A DNA stretch of 64,000 bases from Cyanobacteria bacterium P01_D01_bin.156 (GCA_039024555.1 JBCCQQ010000001.1:288001-352000); one strand, 5' to 3'. Shown: positions 49,630 to 57,692, counted from the first letter of the stretch. Translations and numbers: made by a program. The notes: generated by a model from the letters alone, not told the origin.

Positions 49630-49843
49630 CTTGTGTCTATATGTCATTTGGTAACGGTTGGCACCATTTGATGGACTTTTGTTGAGAAACCTTGAGTTGG
49701 GGTAGGTTTTTCTCTAATTTCAATAGGGAGCGGTCACTGGCGCGGTATCGCTAGAACGCTGACTCTATAAATGTTAAAACCAATCAGTAAAGCGAGCGTC
49801 CGGCACGTCGGGCTTTTAATAAAGGATCTTTTTGGGAGGAAGA

Positions 49844-51133
49844 ATGAATATTGCCGTTATTGGCCTTAGCCATAAGACTGCACCGGTCGAGGTTCGCGAA
49901 AAGCTTAGTATTCCAACACCTAAGATTGAGGGTGCGATCGCAAGACTCACCAGCTATCCCCACGTTAGAGAAGTCTCAATTCTTAGCACCTGCAACCGCC
50001 TCGAGCTACACGTAGTCCTTAGCGACACCGAGAACGGTATTCGGGAAGTTACCCAATTTTTGGCCGAGTACGGCGAAGTTCCTGTAGAAGCATTACGCCC
50101 CCACCTATTTATCTTGGTTCAGCAGGATGCCATCATGCATCTACTGCGCGTTTCCTCAGGTCTAGATAGTCTGGTTCTGGGCGAAGGGCAGATTCTGGCC
50201 CAAGTGAAACACGCCTTAGCCGAAAGCCAAAAGCATCAGGGCGTTGGTCGTGTGCTTAGCCGCCTGTTTAAAGACGCCATCAAAACCGGTAAGCGTGTGC
50301 GCACCGAAACTAGCATTGGCACTGGTGCTGTTTCCGTTAGTTCTGCCGCTGCCGAGCTAGCCCAAATGAAGGTGCCCGACTTTACCAACTGCCATATCAC
50401 CATTATTGGTGCGGGTAAAATGGGTCGCCTGTTGGTTAAGCACCTCGTATCCAAGCGGGCTGTTAACATCACCCTGCTTAACCGCAGCATCCAGCGGGCC
50501 GATGACTTAGCGGCTGACTATAGCCACGTAGATATTAAAACCGGCACCATGGAGAAAATGGACGCCGCTGTCACGAAGGCCGATATCGTCTTCACCTGTA
50601 CGTCTTCTGAGGAGCCCGTTCTCCATAAGGACAATGTGCAGTCCTGTTTAGCCGGTCGTCCTCTTAGCCTGTTTGATATTTCTGTGCCCCGTAACGTGCA
50701 TAAGAATGTGGAGGAGCTGGACGGAGTAAAGTCCTACACCGTGGATGACCTCAAGGAAGTAGTGGCTAAAAATCAGGAAAGCCGTCGCCAGATGGCCCAG
50801 GAAGCGGAAGGCATCTTAGATCAGGAACTAAACCAGTTCGTAAAGTGGTGGAAGTCTCTAGATACGGTAGCTACTATCAGCAGTCTACGTACTAAGGTAG
50901 AAGCCATTCGTGAGCAGGAGCTGGAGAAAGCCCTGTCTCGCCTAGGTGCTGATTTTTCGGATAAGCACCGCAATGTAGTGGAAGCCCTGTCTCGCGGCAT
51001 TGTAAACAAGATTCTGCATGACCCCATGACCCAACTACGGGCACAGGAAGATACTGAATCGCGTAAGCAGGCGATGGAGACGCTACAGGTATTGTTTAAT
51101 CTGGAAGAGAAAAAGGCTGCAGCGAAGCGTTAA
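49844..51133 (+). CDS. hemA: Glutamyl-tRNA reductase
   Basis: [35 protein letters not shown] and GAGKMG; GGAGG SD. Confidence 0.98.
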
Positions 51134-51189: not shown

Positions 51190-51218
51190 GAGCTAAGCAC
51201 TTGCTTAGCTCTTTTTTT
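51190..51218 (+). terminator. Intrinsic terminator after hemA
   Basis: GAGCTAAGCA-ct-TGCTTAGCTC followed by T7. Confidence 0.85.
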
Positions 51219-51257
51219 GTGCGATCGCACTTTCTTCCCCCGCTAGCTCCCCAGATT

Positions 51258-51989
51258 ATGCTGCTCAAACCCTTTCGCCGCTTTATTCCTCTTTTATTGC
51301 TAGTCTTTACCCTCGGATGCACTCAGGTTAATACAGCAGCAACCACAAACAGCATTTATAGCTATAAACAACCCAGCAGTGACGGCATTGGCAAAGTATA
51401 TATGGGGCGGGAAATTTCCCAGGTTATGGGTCATCAGGGAGCTTACTGGTTAGAGCGCCCCAGCCGAGAAGCCGAAGAACGTCCAGATATGGCGATAGAT
51501 GCCCTAGGGTTAAAACCAACTGATACCGTAGCTGACATTGGGGCAGGGACGGGCTATATGAGTTTTCGCATGGCTCGTAAAGTTCCAGATGGTCAGGTCC
51601 TTGCAGTGGACCTACAACCAGAAATGATTCAGCTATTGGAAGAAACACGGGATGAGCAAGGCGTTACTAATTTGACAACCATCCAAGCGGAAGAAAACAA
51701 TCCGCATCTGCCAGCAGGACAGGTCGACCTAGTGCTGATGGTGGACGCGTATCACGAGTTTGAGTCTCCCCGGGAAGTCATGACTGGTGTCGTGGAGGGA
51801 TTAAAACCCGATGGCCAAGTAGTACTGGCCGAATATCGAGCCGAGAATCCGCTAATTATGATCAAGCGGCTACACAAGATGAGCGAGAAACAAGTAAAAA
51901 AAGAGATGGCGGCAGTCGGGCTAACCTGGGTCAAAACCGATGAACGCTTACCTCAACAACACTTGTTGTTTTTTCAGAAAGTAGCGTGA
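51258..51989 (+). CDS. SAM-dependent methyltransferase with lipoprotein-like signal
   Basis: LVFTLGC lipobox-like, YMGREISQVMGH, ADIGAGTG and MVDAYHEF. Confidence 0.9.
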   Translation: MLLKPFRRFIPLLLLVFTLGCTQVNTAATTNSIYSYKQPSSDGIGKVYMGREISQVMGHQGAYWLERPSREAEERPDMAIDALGLKPTDTVADIGAGTGYMSFRMARKVPDGQVLAVDLQPEMIQLLEETRDEQGVTNLTTIQAEENNPHLPAGQVDLVLMVDAYHEFESPREVMTGVVEGLKPDGQVVLAEYRAENPLIMIKRLHKMSEKQVKKEMAAVGLTWVKTDERLPQQHLLFFQKVA

Positions 51990-52205: not shown

Positions 52206-52688
52206 ATGGTGAACGAAATAGAGTTCCAGTACCTACGTCGTTGCGTAGAACTTGCAACAGAAGCCCTGGAGGCGGGCGATGAGCCATTCGGTTCTGTGCT
52301 CGTCGCCGCAGACGGGACTATGCTTGTGGAAGACCGCAACCGGGTGGCAGCCGGTGATAAAACCCGTCATCCCGAGTTCGAGATCGCGCGCTGGGCTGCG
52401 ATGAATATGCATCCTGAGGAGAGAGCGAGAGCAACCGTTTACACCTCTGGTGAACATTGCCCAATGTGTGCTGCAGCGCATGGGTGGGTTGGGCTAGGCC
52501 GCATCGTGTATGTGAGCTCCTCCGCGCAATTGTTAACCTGGCTAACCGATCTTGGAGTTCCAGCCCCTCCTGTGCGAACGTTGCCGATTCGAGAGGTGGT
52601 GCCTGATCTGGAGGTGGAAGGTCCTATCCCCGATCTTGCTGAGCAGGTACATGAGCTGCATCGTCGTCTTCACAGCTCAGCTAAATAA
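52206..52688 (+). CDS. Zn-dependent nucleoside/nucleobase deaminase (CDA fold)
   Basis: PFGSVLV, HPE and EHCPMC. Confidence 0.9.
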   Translation: MVNEIEFQYLRRCVELATEALEAGDEPFGSVLVAADGTMLVEDRNRVAAGDKTRHPEFEIARWAAMNMHPEERARATVYTSGEHCPMCAAAHGWVGLGRIVYVSSSAQLLTWLTDLGVPAPPVRTLPIREVVPDLEVEGPIPDLAEQVHELHRRLHSSAK

Positions 52689-53277: not shown

Positions 53278-55152
53278 ATGACTGCAGGACAACTAGACCA
53301 GAGCCTTCAAATAAAACGCCAGAAGTATCAATATAATTACACCCACATTCCCCCGATAGCCATGGTGGATACCCTGGCAGAAGAGGAAGAATTTTCCTCT
53401 TCGTGGCGCTTGATGGTGGCAAAAGTCGGGTTCGAGCTACTTGTAAATACGATTATTGTTAATCGCGGCGATCACGGCAAAGATGGCGCAGCAGATGATG
53501 TTAAAGCCTTTCTAGTAGAAACATTTAAGGAAACATTAGCCAAACGTGACGGATTCTCTCGTCTAAAGGTTCTCTGGCAGGGAGCTAAGTTTATCCCTAG
53601 AATCTTATTTGGTCGATTGTCTACCAGTGCGGATGAATTAGAAGAGCTGATCACAGACATTATTAAAAGTGTTAGTCGTGATTTTTTACAAGAGTTTGCC
53701 GCTAATGTACAACAGAAGTTAAAGGTAGATTCTCCCCAGGGACGAGGAGACGAGTTAAAAGATTTTCAGGCGCTATTTCAAACTATTGATCTACCTTCTA
53801 TTGCCTATACCTACGAAACGGATGAGGTGTTTGCATCCATGCGAGTTGCCGGACCCAATCCAGTGATGATTCAGCGACTAACAGCACCGCAGCCTAACTT
53901 TCCCGTAACCGAAGAGCACTATCAAGGTGTGTTGGGAACAGATGACTCCCTGACAGCAGCCTACAGTGCAGGGCGTCTGTACATTGCAGACTATAGCATT
54001 TTAGAAGATGCCATTAATGGTTCTTTTCCTGGCAGCCAGAAGTATCTTTACGCTCCCATCGCCCTTTTTGCAGTACCGAAACATGGCGATCGTCGTCTGC
54101 AGCCCGTGGCCATTCAGGTAGGGCAAGACCCGCAGAAACATGGCATTATTACTCCGCAGTCCAATGCCTATGCTTGGCTCTGTGCTAAAACGCTGGTACA
54201 AGTGGCTGATGCCAACTTCCATGAGGCGGTAACCCATCTAGCACGTACCCATTTATTTATCGGGCCATTTGCGATCGCAACCCACCGCCAGCTTCTTGAT
54301 AATCATCCGGTGAGTCTTCTACTACGGCCACATTTCCAGGGAATGCTGGCCATCAACAATGCGGCCCAAGACAAGCTAATTGCCGCTGGTGGCGGCGTCA
54401 ACAAAATTCTCTCCGCCACCATTGATTCATCACGGGTCTTTGCCGTACTAGGGGTTCAAACCTATGGTTTTAACTCTGCCATGTTCCCCAAACAACTGCG
54501 ACAGCGAGGCGTTGACGAAACAGATTGTTTACCCAACTATCCCTACCGCGACGATGGTTTATTGATTTGGAACGCCATCCATACCTGGGTTCACGACTAT
54601 CTAAAAGTTTATTATGCCGACGATGCTGCGGTGCAACAAGACAGCAGCTTGCAAGCCTGGGCTAAAGAATTAGTTGCCCATAATGGTGGACGCGTTATTG
54701 AATTTGGAGAAGCGAATGGCCAAATCCAAACCCTAACCTATCTCATTGACGCGATTACTCTGATTATTTTTACCGCCAGCGCTCAACATGCCGCCGTAAA
54801 TTTTCCGCAAAAAGAGATCATGAGCTATGCTCCCGCCATGCCCACCGCTGGCTATGCCAAGCTAGACAATCCAGGAGAACACACCACGCAAGCAGATTAT
54901 CTCAGCTTGCTTCCTCCCCTCCGGCAGGCACAAGAACAACTAAAACTTCTCCATTTACTAGGCTCCGCCCATTTCACCCAGCTTGGAGAATATGAAACCG
55001 GTCATTTTCAAGATCCCAATGTGCAGGCTCCCCTGGGTCGCTTTCGCAATCGTTTAGACGAAATCACAGACACTATCTACGAGCGTAATCGCAATCGGCC
55101 ATGCTACGACTACTTGCTCCCTAAAAATATTCCTCAAAGTATCAATATCTAA
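53278..55152 (+). CDS. Lipoxygenase
   Basis: RVAGPNP, WLCAK, HEAVTHLARTH, YPYRDDG, QHAAVNF and C-terminal IPQSINI (Ile iron ligand). Confidence 0.96.
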   Translation: MTAGQLDQSLQIKRQKYQYNYTHIPPIAMVDTLAEEEEFSSSWRLMVAKVGFELLVNTIIVNRGDHGKDGAADDVKAFLVETFKETLAKRDGFSRLKVLWQGAKFIPRILFGRLSTSADELEELITDIIKSVSRDFLQEFAANVQQKLKVDSPQGRGDELKDFQALFQTIDLPSIAYTYETDEVFASMRVAGPNPVMIQRLTAPQPNFPVTEEHYQGVLGTDDSLTAAYSAGRLYIADYSILEDAINGSFPGSQKYLYAPIALFAVPKHGDRRLQPVAIQVGQDPQKHGIITPQSNAYAWLCAKTLVQVADANFHEAVTHLARTHLFIGPFAIATHRQLLDNHPVSLLLRPHFQGMLAINNAAQDKLIAAGGGVNKILSATIDSSRVFAVLGVQTYGFNSAMFPKQLRQRGVDETDCLPNYPYRDDGLLIWNAIHTWVHDYLKVYYADDAAVQQDSSLQAWAKELVAHNGGRVIEFGEANGQIQTLTYLIDAITLIIFTASAQHAAVNFPQKEIMSYAPAMPTAGYAKLDNPGEHTTQADYLSLLPPLRQAQEQLKLLHLLGSAHFTQLGEYETGHFQDPNVQAPLGRFRNRLDEITDTIYERNRNRPCYDYLLPKNIPQSINI

Positions 55153-55200
55153 CGTATCCAACGTCTATTGCTACTCTGCCCTCCTCTATATAGCACCACC

Positions 55201-56559
55201 ATGGACATCACGGCTCTAAGACAAAAGCTTATCAAAACCCACGACGGCCAAATTAAGCTATCTAAACGAATCGCCAAGGTGGGCTACGATACCACCCTAG
55301 GCAAGCTATTGCGCCTCAAACCCTACTACAGTGAAGGTATTACCATGTTGAAAGCATGGCGAAACTTTCTCTACATTCGTAAAGAACAGATTGGCAACAC
55401 CTACTTTGCCGTTGACCATGCCATCATGCATACAGACCATGATCAGGTAAAAGGTCTTATGCAGGTAGAGCCTCAGCTGCGGGGTAACGATCTGGGCATT
55501 ATCAGAATTTTGGCCGATAGCTACATGCTAGGCAATCCTCTGAGTTTAGGCACTAACGGAAAGGCTCACACCGGCATCCGGGCTGTTTTCCATGAAGCAC
55601 TACCTGACCCTTGGCAAAAGGCAGCACATCTCGGCAGTTATGTAGATAGCTTTCTCTCTGAACACACCAAACTAGGGAAACTGCACATTGGGGACGATCT
55701 GCCTCGCTTTATGGTGAAGATTTTGCACCACCTTGTATTTCAACTCAACGTCTCGGAGGAAGAAGTAACAAATTCCCGTGGGTATATCAAAGGGTTACCC
55801 CTGGCCTCTCTACCCACGTTTCTTAGCAAATATATTCTAGTCTTTAAGACGGGACCTATTCTAAAGCACCGTAAAAGTCTCGTTCAAAAATATCAGGTTT
55901 CTCCTAATTGGAAAGCCTATGCAGCCGCTGGGCAACAATATAATCTCACAGCCAATGAGATCGCCAACGGTCTGTTTGACATGATCCATATTGCGGGGAC
56001 TGCTGGCACTAGCGCCTTAATGGGTTCTGTCATTGGTGTCCTTTATCTAAATGACGCCTTACGCAATGACGTCATTCATGAAATTAATACCGTTTGGACA
56101 GGTGACACTCCTCCAACCGGAGACATGCTCCGGCAAGCAACGTTACTACACAAGGTGGTTTTAGAAACAGCTCGCTTGTATCCGCCTGTACGCTTTGTCA
56201 GCCAGCTCGCTAAAGAGTCTGGAGAAGTCAAGATAGGCGAAGCCAAATGTCCATTTCAAAAGGGTACTCGTCTTTTAGGATCTATCTTTACCGCTAATCG
56301 CGATGAACAGCGATATGTCAATCCCGATGATTTCTCAGTTGATCGAGACTTTTCAGATCTCCTCTCCTGGAATGGAGGCAGCCATACACGCGTATGCCCC
56401 GGACAAGAACTCTCCATAGAGCTCATCAAAGTATTTTGTATGTATCTCTTTACAAAATATCAATGGCAACAGGCTACCGAAGTGAAATGGGACTTTGACA
56501 ATGTGACTGCGGTTACCCCCAATGATTTAGAACTTCAGGGATTTGCTCCAAAGGCATGA
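55201..56559 (+). CDS. Atypical cytochrome P450 (CYP74-like hydroperoxide-metabolising candidate)
   Basis: ExxR in ETARLYPPV, ANRD...PDDF, heme Cys in WNGGSHTRVCPG, I-helix AGTAGT. Start at ATG 55201 or TTG 55168. Confidence 0.88.
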   Translation: MDITALRQKLIKTHDGQIKLSKRIAKVGYDTTLGKLLRLKPYYSEGITMLKAWRNFLYIRKEQIGNTYFAVDHAIMHTDHDQVKGLMQVEPQLRGNDLGIIRILADSYMLGNPLSLGTNGKAHTGIRAVFHEALPDPWQKAAHLGSYVDSFLSEHTKLGKLHIGDDLPRFMVKILHHLVFQLNVSEEEVTNSRGYIKGLPLASLPTFLSKYILVFKTGPILKHRKSLVQKYQVSPNWKAYAAAGQQYNLTANEIANGLFDMIHIAGTAGTSALMGSVIGVLYLNDALRNDVIHEINTVWTGDTPPTGDMLRQATLLHKVVLETARLYPPVRFVSQLAKESGEVKIGEAKCPFQKGTRLLGSIFTANRDEQRYVNPDDFSVDRDFSDLLSWNGGSHTRVCPGQELSIELIKVFCMYLFTKYQWQQATEVKWDFDNVTAVTPNDLELQGFAPKA

Positions 56560-56603
56560 GCTAACAAACTCAACAACACACACACTGACGACAGAGGACA
56601 CCT

Positions 56604-57155
56604 ATGATGACTGGAACCGTAGTCGCTCAAAAATTTGAGGACATTGCTACCTGGATGACGTCCAACCAGCCCACCGATCTCCCCAATGTACTCAAGGGGG
56701 TATTTTTTATGGATGGCAACCCCCTTCCTGACGATTGCATCAACATGTACAACCTAGACTGGGATGAAACAGAGCATCGTCTGACGTTACCGGTAACAGC
56801 CCCAGCACAGTGGACATTTCACCGCAATCTATTGGGTTGGCTCTTGCTTCGCGGTGCTCAGCTTGCCAATTTTAGATACATCATTCAATTTGAAGACGCT
56901 ACATTACAAAGCGCTCAAATTATTCCCATTGCTTTTGGCCTCACTGTACCACGATGGATTGTGGATGCCACCATGTGCCAACATGAGGGAATCAATAATG
57001 GTGAATTGTGGGACCGTAAAAATGTTTGGTTGGGGGGCATTCCCAGGGTAGGAGAATATGTCCTACGCCGCATTGTTGACGAAAATGGTCAGTACACGGC
57101 AGCTTTTCAAGACATGCTTACCAAAGTAGATGCTGAATGCTTAGTGGTCAGATAA
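56604..57155 (+). CDS. Unknown 183-aa protein, third gene of the LOX-P450 operon
   Basis: AGAGGA SD, 44 nt after the P450 stop; aromatic, beta-strand-like pattern. Confidence 0.8.
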   Translation: MMTGTVVAQKFEDIATWMTSNQPTDLPNVLKGVFFMDGNPLPDDCINMYNLDWDETEHRLTLPVTAPAQWTFHRNLLGWLLLRGAQLANFRYIIQFEDATLQSAQIIPIAFGLTVPRWIVDATMCQHEGINNGELWDRKNVWLGGIPRVGEYVLRRIVDENGQYTAAFQDMLTKVDAECLVVR

Positions 57156-57158
57156 CAA

Positions 57159-57692
57159 CTATGCTGCCGCATCAAAACGTGCCAGGTACTGACCATAGCC
57201 CTCTGTTTCTAACTCAGCCAGGGGAATAAAATGTAGCGCTGCCGAATTGATACAGTAGCGTAGACCTGTTGGGTTTGGACCATCCTTAAAGACATGCCCC
57301 AGATGGGAGTCAGCCTGACGGCTACGTACTTCAGTCCGCACCATAAAGAAAGAACGATCTTGGACTTCAACAATGTTGTCAGATTCAATGGGCTGAAAGA
57401 AAGAAGGCCAGCCTGTTCCAGAGGCAAACTTATCAGTAGAAGAGAACAATGGCTCTCCTGACACCACATCAACGTAAATACCTGCTTTCTTATTATTCCA
57501 ATAAGCGTTCTTAAAGGGAGGTTCTGTAGCATCTTGCTGGGTTACGGCATACTGTTGCTCCGTCAGCTTAGCTTGCAACGTTTCCATATCCGGCTTCTGA
57601 AAGTCATTGTCCGCCTGAGCAAGACTCGGGTTTACGACGACTAACCCCACTAGCATTAGGCAACCCAAAATAAACCGGTAAACTCGTTTCAT
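57159..57692 (-). CDS. msrB: Methionine-R-sulfoxide reductase with signal peptide
   Basis: [28 protein letters not shown] and RYCINS; AQA-type cleavage site. Confidence 0.95.

Follow-up and report, generated by a model that had tools for sequence, protein, structure and literature searches.

Results

A conserved lipoxygenase–P450–ORF3 cassette

We analysed a 64,000-nucleotide window of Cyanobacteria bacterium P01_D01_bin.156 (GCA_039024555.1 JBCCQQ010000001.1:288001-352000), in which three genes on the plus strand form a compact cassette. The first encodes a lipoxygenase (LOX) of 624 amino acids (53278-55152; PF00305, E value 2.2e-68), the second a cytochrome P450 of 452 amino acids (55201-56559; PF00067, E value 9.5e-16) that belongs to the CYP227 family. 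The third, ORF3 (56604-57155), encodes a protein of 183 amino acids from an unnamed family, predicted to form a calycin- or lipocalin-like beta-barrel and a candidate epoxide hydrolase (EH). Counted from the ATG starts, the gaps measure 48 nucleotides between LOX and P450 and 44 nucleotides between P450 and ORF3. A longer P450 frame opening at a TTG (55168), proposed by the ORF finder, was rejected: the closest homologues are 452 amino acids long and their alignment begins at the Met of the ATG at 55201. The cassette is real, conserved and uncharacterised.

Of 26 related loci, 24 carry the complete trio; the set consists of 15 named GTDB loci, 10 genomes and one Nostoc plasmid. Among the named loci, LOX lies directly upstream of the P450 in 15/15 and ORF3 directly downstream in 14/15; at L009 a second P450 copy stands in place of ORF3, and at L005 ORF3 is frameshifted. 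Across 401 evenly sampled cyanobacterial genomes, the P450 was found in 11, the host included. LOX is upstream in nine of the ten others and ORF3 downstream in all ten, so that nine carry the full trio (one with a frameshifted and one with a duplicated P450); G026 keeps P450 and ORF3 together, with its LOX genes elsewhere. The plasmid, from Nostoc flagelliforme, bears the trio near transposases, and a family-level sample returned nine loci, all trios, largely repeating the named set. Because LOX precedes the P450 in 15/15 and ORF3 follows it in 14/15 named loci, and the order is repeated in further genomes, the arrangement is not due to chance.

The distribution is patchy: the cassette occurs in 8 of 16 other genomes of the same genus and in 1 of 84 other sampled members of the family. 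No fourth gene (for example a ferredoxin, reductase or dehydrogenase) recurs beside it across lineages. LOX itself was found in only 70 of the 401 genomes, with one or two copies each. An earlier note on this DNA, made from the sequence alone, had described a self-contained unit of LOX, atypical P450 and third gene within an accessory block, and had asked whether the genes stay together elsewhere. The co-occurrence of the trio in other cyanobacteria, together with the fused proteins described below, bears out the conserved unit, and its accessory nature agrees with the restricted distribution of the P450 and the lack of a recurrent companion.

The LOX retains a complete set of iron ligands by motif position (H320, H325, H504, N508 and the C-terminal I624), and its closest PDB entries are bacterial 15-LOX and linoleate 9/13-LOX enzymes (E values 1e-122 to 1e-113). 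Alignment to these entries places Ala363 at the Coffa site, whose position we take from the corresponding site in a Pseudomonas LOX. Under the Coffa rule, Ala at this site denotes S stereospecificity; because Ala363 occupies it, the enzyme is predicted to be S-specific, of the 13S/15S type. The characterised Rivularia and Calothrix 13-LOXs could not be confirmed as identical with cassette LOXs.

The host genome encodes a second LOX that is not linked to the cassette (L039:7498-11834, equivalent to G000:C24:13497-17833). It is 41% identical to the cassette LOX, has no adjacent P450 or barrel gene, and lies ~1 kb from a fatty-acid desaturase gene; at L076:5449-9549 a LOX likewise stands beside a desaturase, together with a CMAS-type methyltransferase. 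The genome holds ten matches to the fatty-acid-desaturase family, not typed to desA or desB.

The P450 is an atypical CYP227 enzyme distinct from CYP74

The P450 is 62% identical to P0085 (CYP227A4), 59% to P0115 (CYP227A5) and 58% to P0112 (CYP227A6). P450 naming places sequences above 40% identity in one family and above 55% in one subfamily, and by these identities the protein is a CYP227 family member. The names CYP227A4 and CYP2287A4, the latter from a family considered below, come from the supplement of PMC7014017; the main text of that paper is silent on CYP227, CYP74, lipoxygenase and oxylipin. Our searches found no published function or LOX linkage for CYP227A1-A6, a family that has been named only, and an Atlas search with the P450 returned generic P450 clusters only.

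The model of the protein adopts a P450 fold (Z ~25 against solved P450s) with the expected ExxR (E322-T-A-R325), PPV (P328-P-V330) and haem ligand (C399). No variation was seen at C399, ExxR or the other haem-binding motifs. The I-helix departs from the canonical monooxygenase pattern: homologue alignment assigns A265-G-T-A-G269 (55993-56007) to the position of (A/G)Gx(D/E)T, so that Ala-Gly replaces the acid–alcohol pair and Gly occupies the site of the catalytic Thr. This Gly is shared by 120/120 listed homologues (AGTAG in 109, AGTLG in 9, AGTEG in 2), all of which read FDxIHxAGTxG; the acid is missing in 118 and Glu stands at the acid site in 2. Two other P450s in the host genome retain AGHET. 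The Cys pocket, W390-N-G-x6-C399 (56368-56397), carries Trp at the usual Phe position and a two-residue insertion relative to the canonical FGxGxRxCxG (PMC13049297), and the W-to-C distance is 9 in 120/120 listed homologues. With its O2-activation pair missing, the P450 is atypical, as the earlier note had called it.

The plant CYP74 family, which the same note had offered as a model, proved a poor match in identity. CYP74 enzymes have a conserved Asn in the I-helix groove (N321 in AtAOS, motif FNTwGG(MKI); PMC13049297) and a nine-residue insertion in the haem-binding loop (PMC8124189, PMC10813956). Motif-level alignment of FNTwGGMKI with MIHIAGTAG puts Ile262 at the CYP74 Asn site, no Asn occurs within FDMIHIAG in any of the 120 listed CYP227 homologues, and the insertion in the Cys pocket has two residues where CYP74 has nine. 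Cys ligand, ExxR and PPV are present as in CYP74, but are common to many P450s and hence non-diagnostic. CYP74A2 (3dam) appeared at E value 3.7e-6 in the profile search, ranked below CYP3A, CYP51 and CYP152, and fell outside the top five in the PDB search. Its structural Z of 24.5, against a top Z of 25.7 for a model whose predicted local distance difference test (pLDDT) score is only 73, makes it one of many equidistant solved P450s. We therefore rejected CYP74 identity, on the absent groove Asn and the short insertion. These absences lower the case that the protein is a CYP74 and leave the case that it works like one unaffected, because thromboxane synthase (TXS) and several fungal allene oxide synthases (AOS) also lack the Asn. 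The axial Asn is described as dispensable in those enzymes (PMC13049297), and P450s that use hydroperoxides work without O2 and without redox partners, their I-helix being altered (PMC10813956).

Tandem CYP227 duplicates lie at L009:8001-10770 and L034:7029-9918, the second copy being 56% identical to the P450 here. One duplicate copy reads FDMTHLAG, and the duplicates may differ in product.

ORF3 is predicted to be a calycin-like barrel

ORF3 had no match in Pfam or NCBIfam scans, and an Atlas search returned unnamed clusters only. Its family includes 120 close homologues and at least 361 clusters at E value ≤ 0.001 in a 50%-identity library. The structural model (pLDDT 90.7) is a beta-barrel. 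Lipocalin-type barrels match it best, though only at Z 6.5-6.0, below the value of 8 that the tool calls convincing; nitrophorin matched at Z 6.0 (root-mean-square deviation 3.8, 125 aligned residues) and many lipocalins at Z 4.4-5.2. Foldseek gave no match at E value ≤ 0.001, and neither allene oxide cyclase (AOC), dirigent nor limonene-epoxide-hydrolase folds were among the 50 VIA-align rows listed, an absence that does not count against them. On the model, we predict a calycin-like beta-barrel. It has none of the alpha/beta fold of classical epoxide hydrolases.

A polar set, N39, D/E43, Y92, R138 and Y152, is kept in 76-94% of the 119 distant homologues with sufficient coverage (N39 85%, D/E43 86%, R138 94%, Y152 94%). 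A complex prediction for P450 and barrel scored 0.00 and gave no answer.

Fused relatives join the corresponding domains in single chains

Among the best 150 ORF3 matches, P0307/P0390 (1107 amino acids) joins a barrel, a CYP227-like P450 and a LOX in a single chain. The P450 domain is 24% identical to CYP227 (E value 1e-17) and carries the motifs AGVIG, ETARL and SWNG..C. A CYP227 profile search for longer proteins returned solely P0307, itself in the profile, and no DNA context for P0307 was found in viral and metagenome contigs. P0243 (270 amino acids) has a barrel in frame with the first 90 residues of a CYP2287-like P450 and is seemingly truncated.

In the chytrid genera Chytriomyces, Physocladia and Entophlyctis, the P450 position of such a fusion is taken by a different haem-thiolate enzyme: P0287, P0291 and P0363 join a haem-thiolate peroxidase (PF01328, with the PCP motif) to a barrel and a LOX. 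This peroxidase domain was present in 6 of the 31 barrel proteins scanned. The chytrid fusion fits an epoxide-forming step because fungal unspecific peroxygenases epoxidise polyunsaturated fatty acids (PUFAs; PMC11719350).

A sister P450 family exchanges the barrel for an epoxide hydrolase homologue

Of the 401 genomes, 29 carry the barrel, and 18 of the 29 lack CYP227. In 16 of the latter, all from one genus, the gene immediately upstream of the barrel encodes another P450, which matches CYP2287A4 and is 22% identical to CYP227 (hhalign probability 96.8). Its I-helix reads I-A-[GA]-L-Q-G-P, again with Gly at the Thr site. The remaining two barrel genes (L073:7591-8057 and L074:7644-8182) are broken by stops or frameshifts, in genomes with neither CYP227 nor CYP2287, which is consistent with decay after partner loss. 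A stricter rule, that the barrel always stands beside a haem-thiolate enzyme, was rejected: 27/29 genomes fit, the two broken barrels have no P450 within ~8 kb, and most distant barrels are stand-alone.

CYP2287 was found in 22 of the 401 genomes; of the six outside the barrel genus, five have it adjoining LOX. The Pfam p450 profile misses it at E value 0.01 (P0404, L070:6451-7812), and because of this divergence the family is probably under-annotated. It was not found in the main texts of the literature.

The third position behind CYP2287 is not always a barrel. Among 42 metagenome CYP2287 loci, many of them short, 17 contained LOX, 11 the barrel and 5 an alpha/beta EH homologue, and none combined barrel and EH. 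Altogether, seven distinct loci (L101, L123, L124, L139, L140, L143 and L149), including genomes G302, G404 and G424, place an EH homologue in the third slot; L141 repeats L124, whose EH is split. The homologues fall into two lineages ~31% identical. One of them, P0406, carries HGFPE, GHDWG, two Tyr motifs and the catalytic His, and thus the Asp nucleophile, His and two Tyr of alpha/beta epoxide hydrolases; its best PDB match is an epoxide hydrolase (E value 2e-34). Barrel and EH were never in one locus, and the three EH-linked genomes gave no barrel match, two of these genomes being only 74-84% complete. Hydrolases of this type are scarce (0-2 strong matches per genome in ten genomes), and their repeated adjacency to CYP2287 is therefore unlikely to be chance. 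At L101 the order is class-3 lipase, LOX, CYP2287, EH. In a FastTree phylogeny of 27 chosen CYP2287 rows with two CYP227 rows, a barrel-linked clade nests among EH-linked rows with moderate support (93-94), and a second barrel-linked row lies elsewhere.

Large ORFs flank LOX–CYP2287 pairs at L144:6373-10179, L137:6598-10077 and L122:10561-12666. They show patatin-like GG..G and G.SAG motifs by eye and could be lipases supplying free PUFA. Two further CYP2287-like proteins (L157:315-1835 and L158:412-1893; 48% identity, IAALPGP and IAAQAGP), also missed by Pfam, bear N-terminal extensions of 60-70 residues that look like signal-plus-transit peptides, and they possibly come from eukaryotic algae.

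Genomic neighbourhood

Upstream of the cassette lie hemA (49832-51133), a S-adenosylmethionine-dependent methyltransferase gene (51201-51989) and a gene for a TadA-like zinc deaminase (52206-52688). The deaminase is absent beside related cassettes, and the methyltransferase is repeated in two close relatives only. Downstream, the convergent msrB ends at 57159, three nucleotides past the ORF3 stop, with gyrB beyond; hemA and gyrB were named from their translations. The ORF coordinates agree with the three co-oriented, closely spaced genes between hemA and msrB/gyrB given in the earlier note. A promoter and terminator scan of the cassette region found nothing exceeding shuffled sequence.

Discussion

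A proposed reductase-free oxylipin pathway

We propose that the cassette encodes a reductase-free oxylipin line, a reading of gene linkage and motifs to which we give even chances as a whole. LOX would convert linoleic or linolenic acid into an S-hydroperoxide. CYP227, in which Gly at the Thr site would leave room above the haem, would turn this into an epoxy-hydroxy fatty acid by reductase-free O-O cleavage, through epoxyalcohol synthase or peroxygenase chemistry. The barrel, or the EH in sister loci, would then open the epoxide to give a trihydroxy fatty acid. The steps are not equally secure: the P450 very probably uses the LOX hydroperoxide, its product is somewhat more probably an epoxide than anything else, and whether the barrel hydrolyses or otherwise opens that epoxide seems to us evenly balanced. 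An epoxide is favoured over an allene oxide because EH homologues fill the slot of the barrel in the sister family; by the same displacement, ORF3 is a candidate for a protein that works like an epoxide hydrolase. We infer the catalytic steps, the co-transcription of the genes and a defence or signalling role of the products. The route from LOX through P450 to a cyclase or carrier, as first suggested in the earlier note, thus survives in part: synteny, fusions and CYP2287 make action of the P450 on the LOX hydroperoxide likely, whereas a cyclase is now less likely, given the exchange of barrel for EH.

Several observations weigh against this proposal. The EH exchange is known behind CYP2287 and not behind CYP227, and the two families, so dissimilar in sequence, may make different products. 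Nor is the third gene always present: G160, G236, G244, G390 and G426 have CYP2287 and LOX without a barrel or close EH; G166 has CYP2287 alone, and LOX is unlinked in the barrel–CYP2287 genus (genomes checked by coordinates). Distant barrels are mostly stand-alone, 5 of 149 scanned having a LOX and 2 of 149 a CYP227-like domain, and the P0307 fusion represents a single cluster with a divergent LOX domain (HEIAG, C-terminal Thr). Within the barrel, only 39% of distant homologues keep D37, and R138, Y152 and R156 could instead be structural lipocalin or carboxylate-binding residues. Wounded Nostoc punctiforme, which carries CYP227A1, is said by Lang and Feussner (2007) to have yielded mainly hydroxy fatty acids. 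Finally, the loci counted are often close kin and not independent, and the numbers given are counts, not tests.

The least unlikely alternative, still improbable in our estimate, is that CYP227 is an AOS and that the barrel folds its allene oxide into a cyclopentenone or bicyclic product. An unstable intermediate would account for the tight linkage and the fusions, the barrel is of the eight-stranded type and has a few conserved polar residues, non-CYP74 P450s without the Asn can be AOS (PMC13049297), and hydroperoxide bicyclases exist in the CYP5164 clan (PMC10813956). Against it stand the EH homologues of two lineages that take the place of the barrel behind CYP2287 and the chytrid partner, which belongs to the peroxygenase family reported to epoxidise PUFAs.

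We think it similarly unlikely, and place it next, that the P450 works as an epoxyalcohol synthase, as a peroxygenase or as a scavenger of peroxides and that the barrel is a non-catalytic, lipocalin-like carrier of substrate or product. The closest folds are lipid-binding lipocalins, G32-x-F/W and Y152-x-L-R-R are similar to the signature regions of lipocalins, and the optional third gene and the stand-alone distant barrels would fit such a role; yet the Asn/Asp/Arg/Tyr set is kept from cyanobacteria to chytrids, and a catalytic hydrolase can take the place of the barrel.

That CYP227 is a hydroperoxide lyase (HPL), cleaving the hydroperoxide to volatile aldehydes and oxo-acids, or a divinyl ether synthase is a distinctly poor prospect. 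A single epoxyallylic radical is the branch point of all CYP74 reactions, and dual activity as HPL and epoxyalcohol synthase is common (PMC10813956), but no dehydrogenase or reductase recurs nearby and the EH linkage of the sister family would be left unexplained. It is very improbable that CYP227 acts as an ordinary monooxygenase reduced by ferredoxin, or as an inactive binding protein of P450 type, on something other than the LOX product: general ferredoxins in cyanobacteria make a missing linked reductase mean little, and some Thr-less P450s are reportedly still monooxygenases, but LOX linkage is repeated in two P450 families and in a fusion, and the invariant haem-binding motifs speak against an inactive protein. 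In the only experiment found for the family, several P450s, among them CYP227A1 fused to a reductase, were screened on 47 small molecules and only CYP110E1 was reported active (PMC3411444); this adds little against a monooxygenase, as expression of CYP227A1 was not shown.

Relation to known oxylipin systems

The predicted logic is that of the plant route from LOX through a CYP74 epoxyalcohol synthase, or a caleosin peroxygenase, to a soluble epoxide hydrolase: a haem enzyme that needs no reductase and has a modified I-helix leads, by way of an epoxyalcohol and its hydrolysis, to trihydroxy acids. The likeness extends to the soluble-EH-type hydrolase in sister loci, one of which also has a lipase. 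The cassette differs in being a putative bacterial operon, in a P450 without the CYP74 Asn and nine-residue insertion, and in a calycin-like barrel instead of an alpha/beta hydrolase. The compounds that plants make in this way, through CYP74 epoxyalcohol synthases or peroxygenases, have been reported to be antimicrobial (PMC10813956). The jasmonate module of LOX, AOS (CYP74A) and AOC is alike in combining LOX, an atypical P450 and a small beta-barrel, whereas ORF3 has no family match to AOC, the P450 lacks CYP74 signatures and the partner swap favours an epoxide.

Outside CYP74, the CYP5164 clan (EsEAS, CYP5164B1; the bicyclases CYP5164A3 and CYP50918A1), the fungal dioxygenase–P450 (DOX-CYP) fusions and PGIS/TXS likewise act on fatty-acid peroxides by rearrangement, need no redox partner and are in many cases linked to the dioxygenase. 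The DOX-CYP fusions differ in using a haem dioxygenase instead of LOX, and their accessible descriptions give no barrel partner. In cyanobacteria and corals, proteins that fuse LOX to a catalase-related haemoprotein (Acaryochloris marina AOS, coral AOS/HPL) also couple LOX to a hydroperoxide-consuming haem enzyme. That enzyme has a catalase fold and a Tyr ligand, unlike the Cys-ligated P450 here, and no third barrel gene accompanies it. The reviews consulted name catalase-related haem proteins as the hydroperoxide-consuming partners of cyanobacterial LOX and give this chemistry to no cyanobacterial P450. The impression in the earlier note that the arrangement was not a characterised one stands: we found no publication describing the cassette or the function of CYP227, CYP2287 or the barrel, in a search that lay outside key subscription papers.

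Implications

More broadly, and tentatively, CYP227, CYP2287 and the fused relatives may form a third lineage of hydroperoxide-rearranging P450s, marked by Gly at the Thr site and independent of CYP74. ORF3 would then belong to a new calycin-fold family of epoxide hydrolases or cyclases, able to team up with any haem-thiolate enzyme in organisms from cyanobacteria to chytrids. As a set, these proteins might supply the enzymes for cyanobacterial epoxy- and trihydroxy-oxylipins, of which malyngic acid and mueggelone are structural types, and possibly, through L157 and L158, for a diatom epoxyalcohol synthase. The CYP5164 clan enters this comparison by description only. The pathway logic is already known from plants, which limits the surprise.

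If the proposal holds, the cassette may provide a new reductase-free biocatalyst and a new epoxide-hydrolase fold, and it points to where an algal or diatom epoxyalcohol synthase may be sought; in diatoms this activity has not been biochemically demonstrated, according to PMC10864609. The pathway would give plant-like defence chemistry from two enzyme families for which no activity was found in the literature searched. A testable function is now proposed for the orphan families CYP227 and CYP2287 and for the large unannotated family of ORF3, and the cassette offers candidate genes for the known C18 oxylipins of cyanobacteria.

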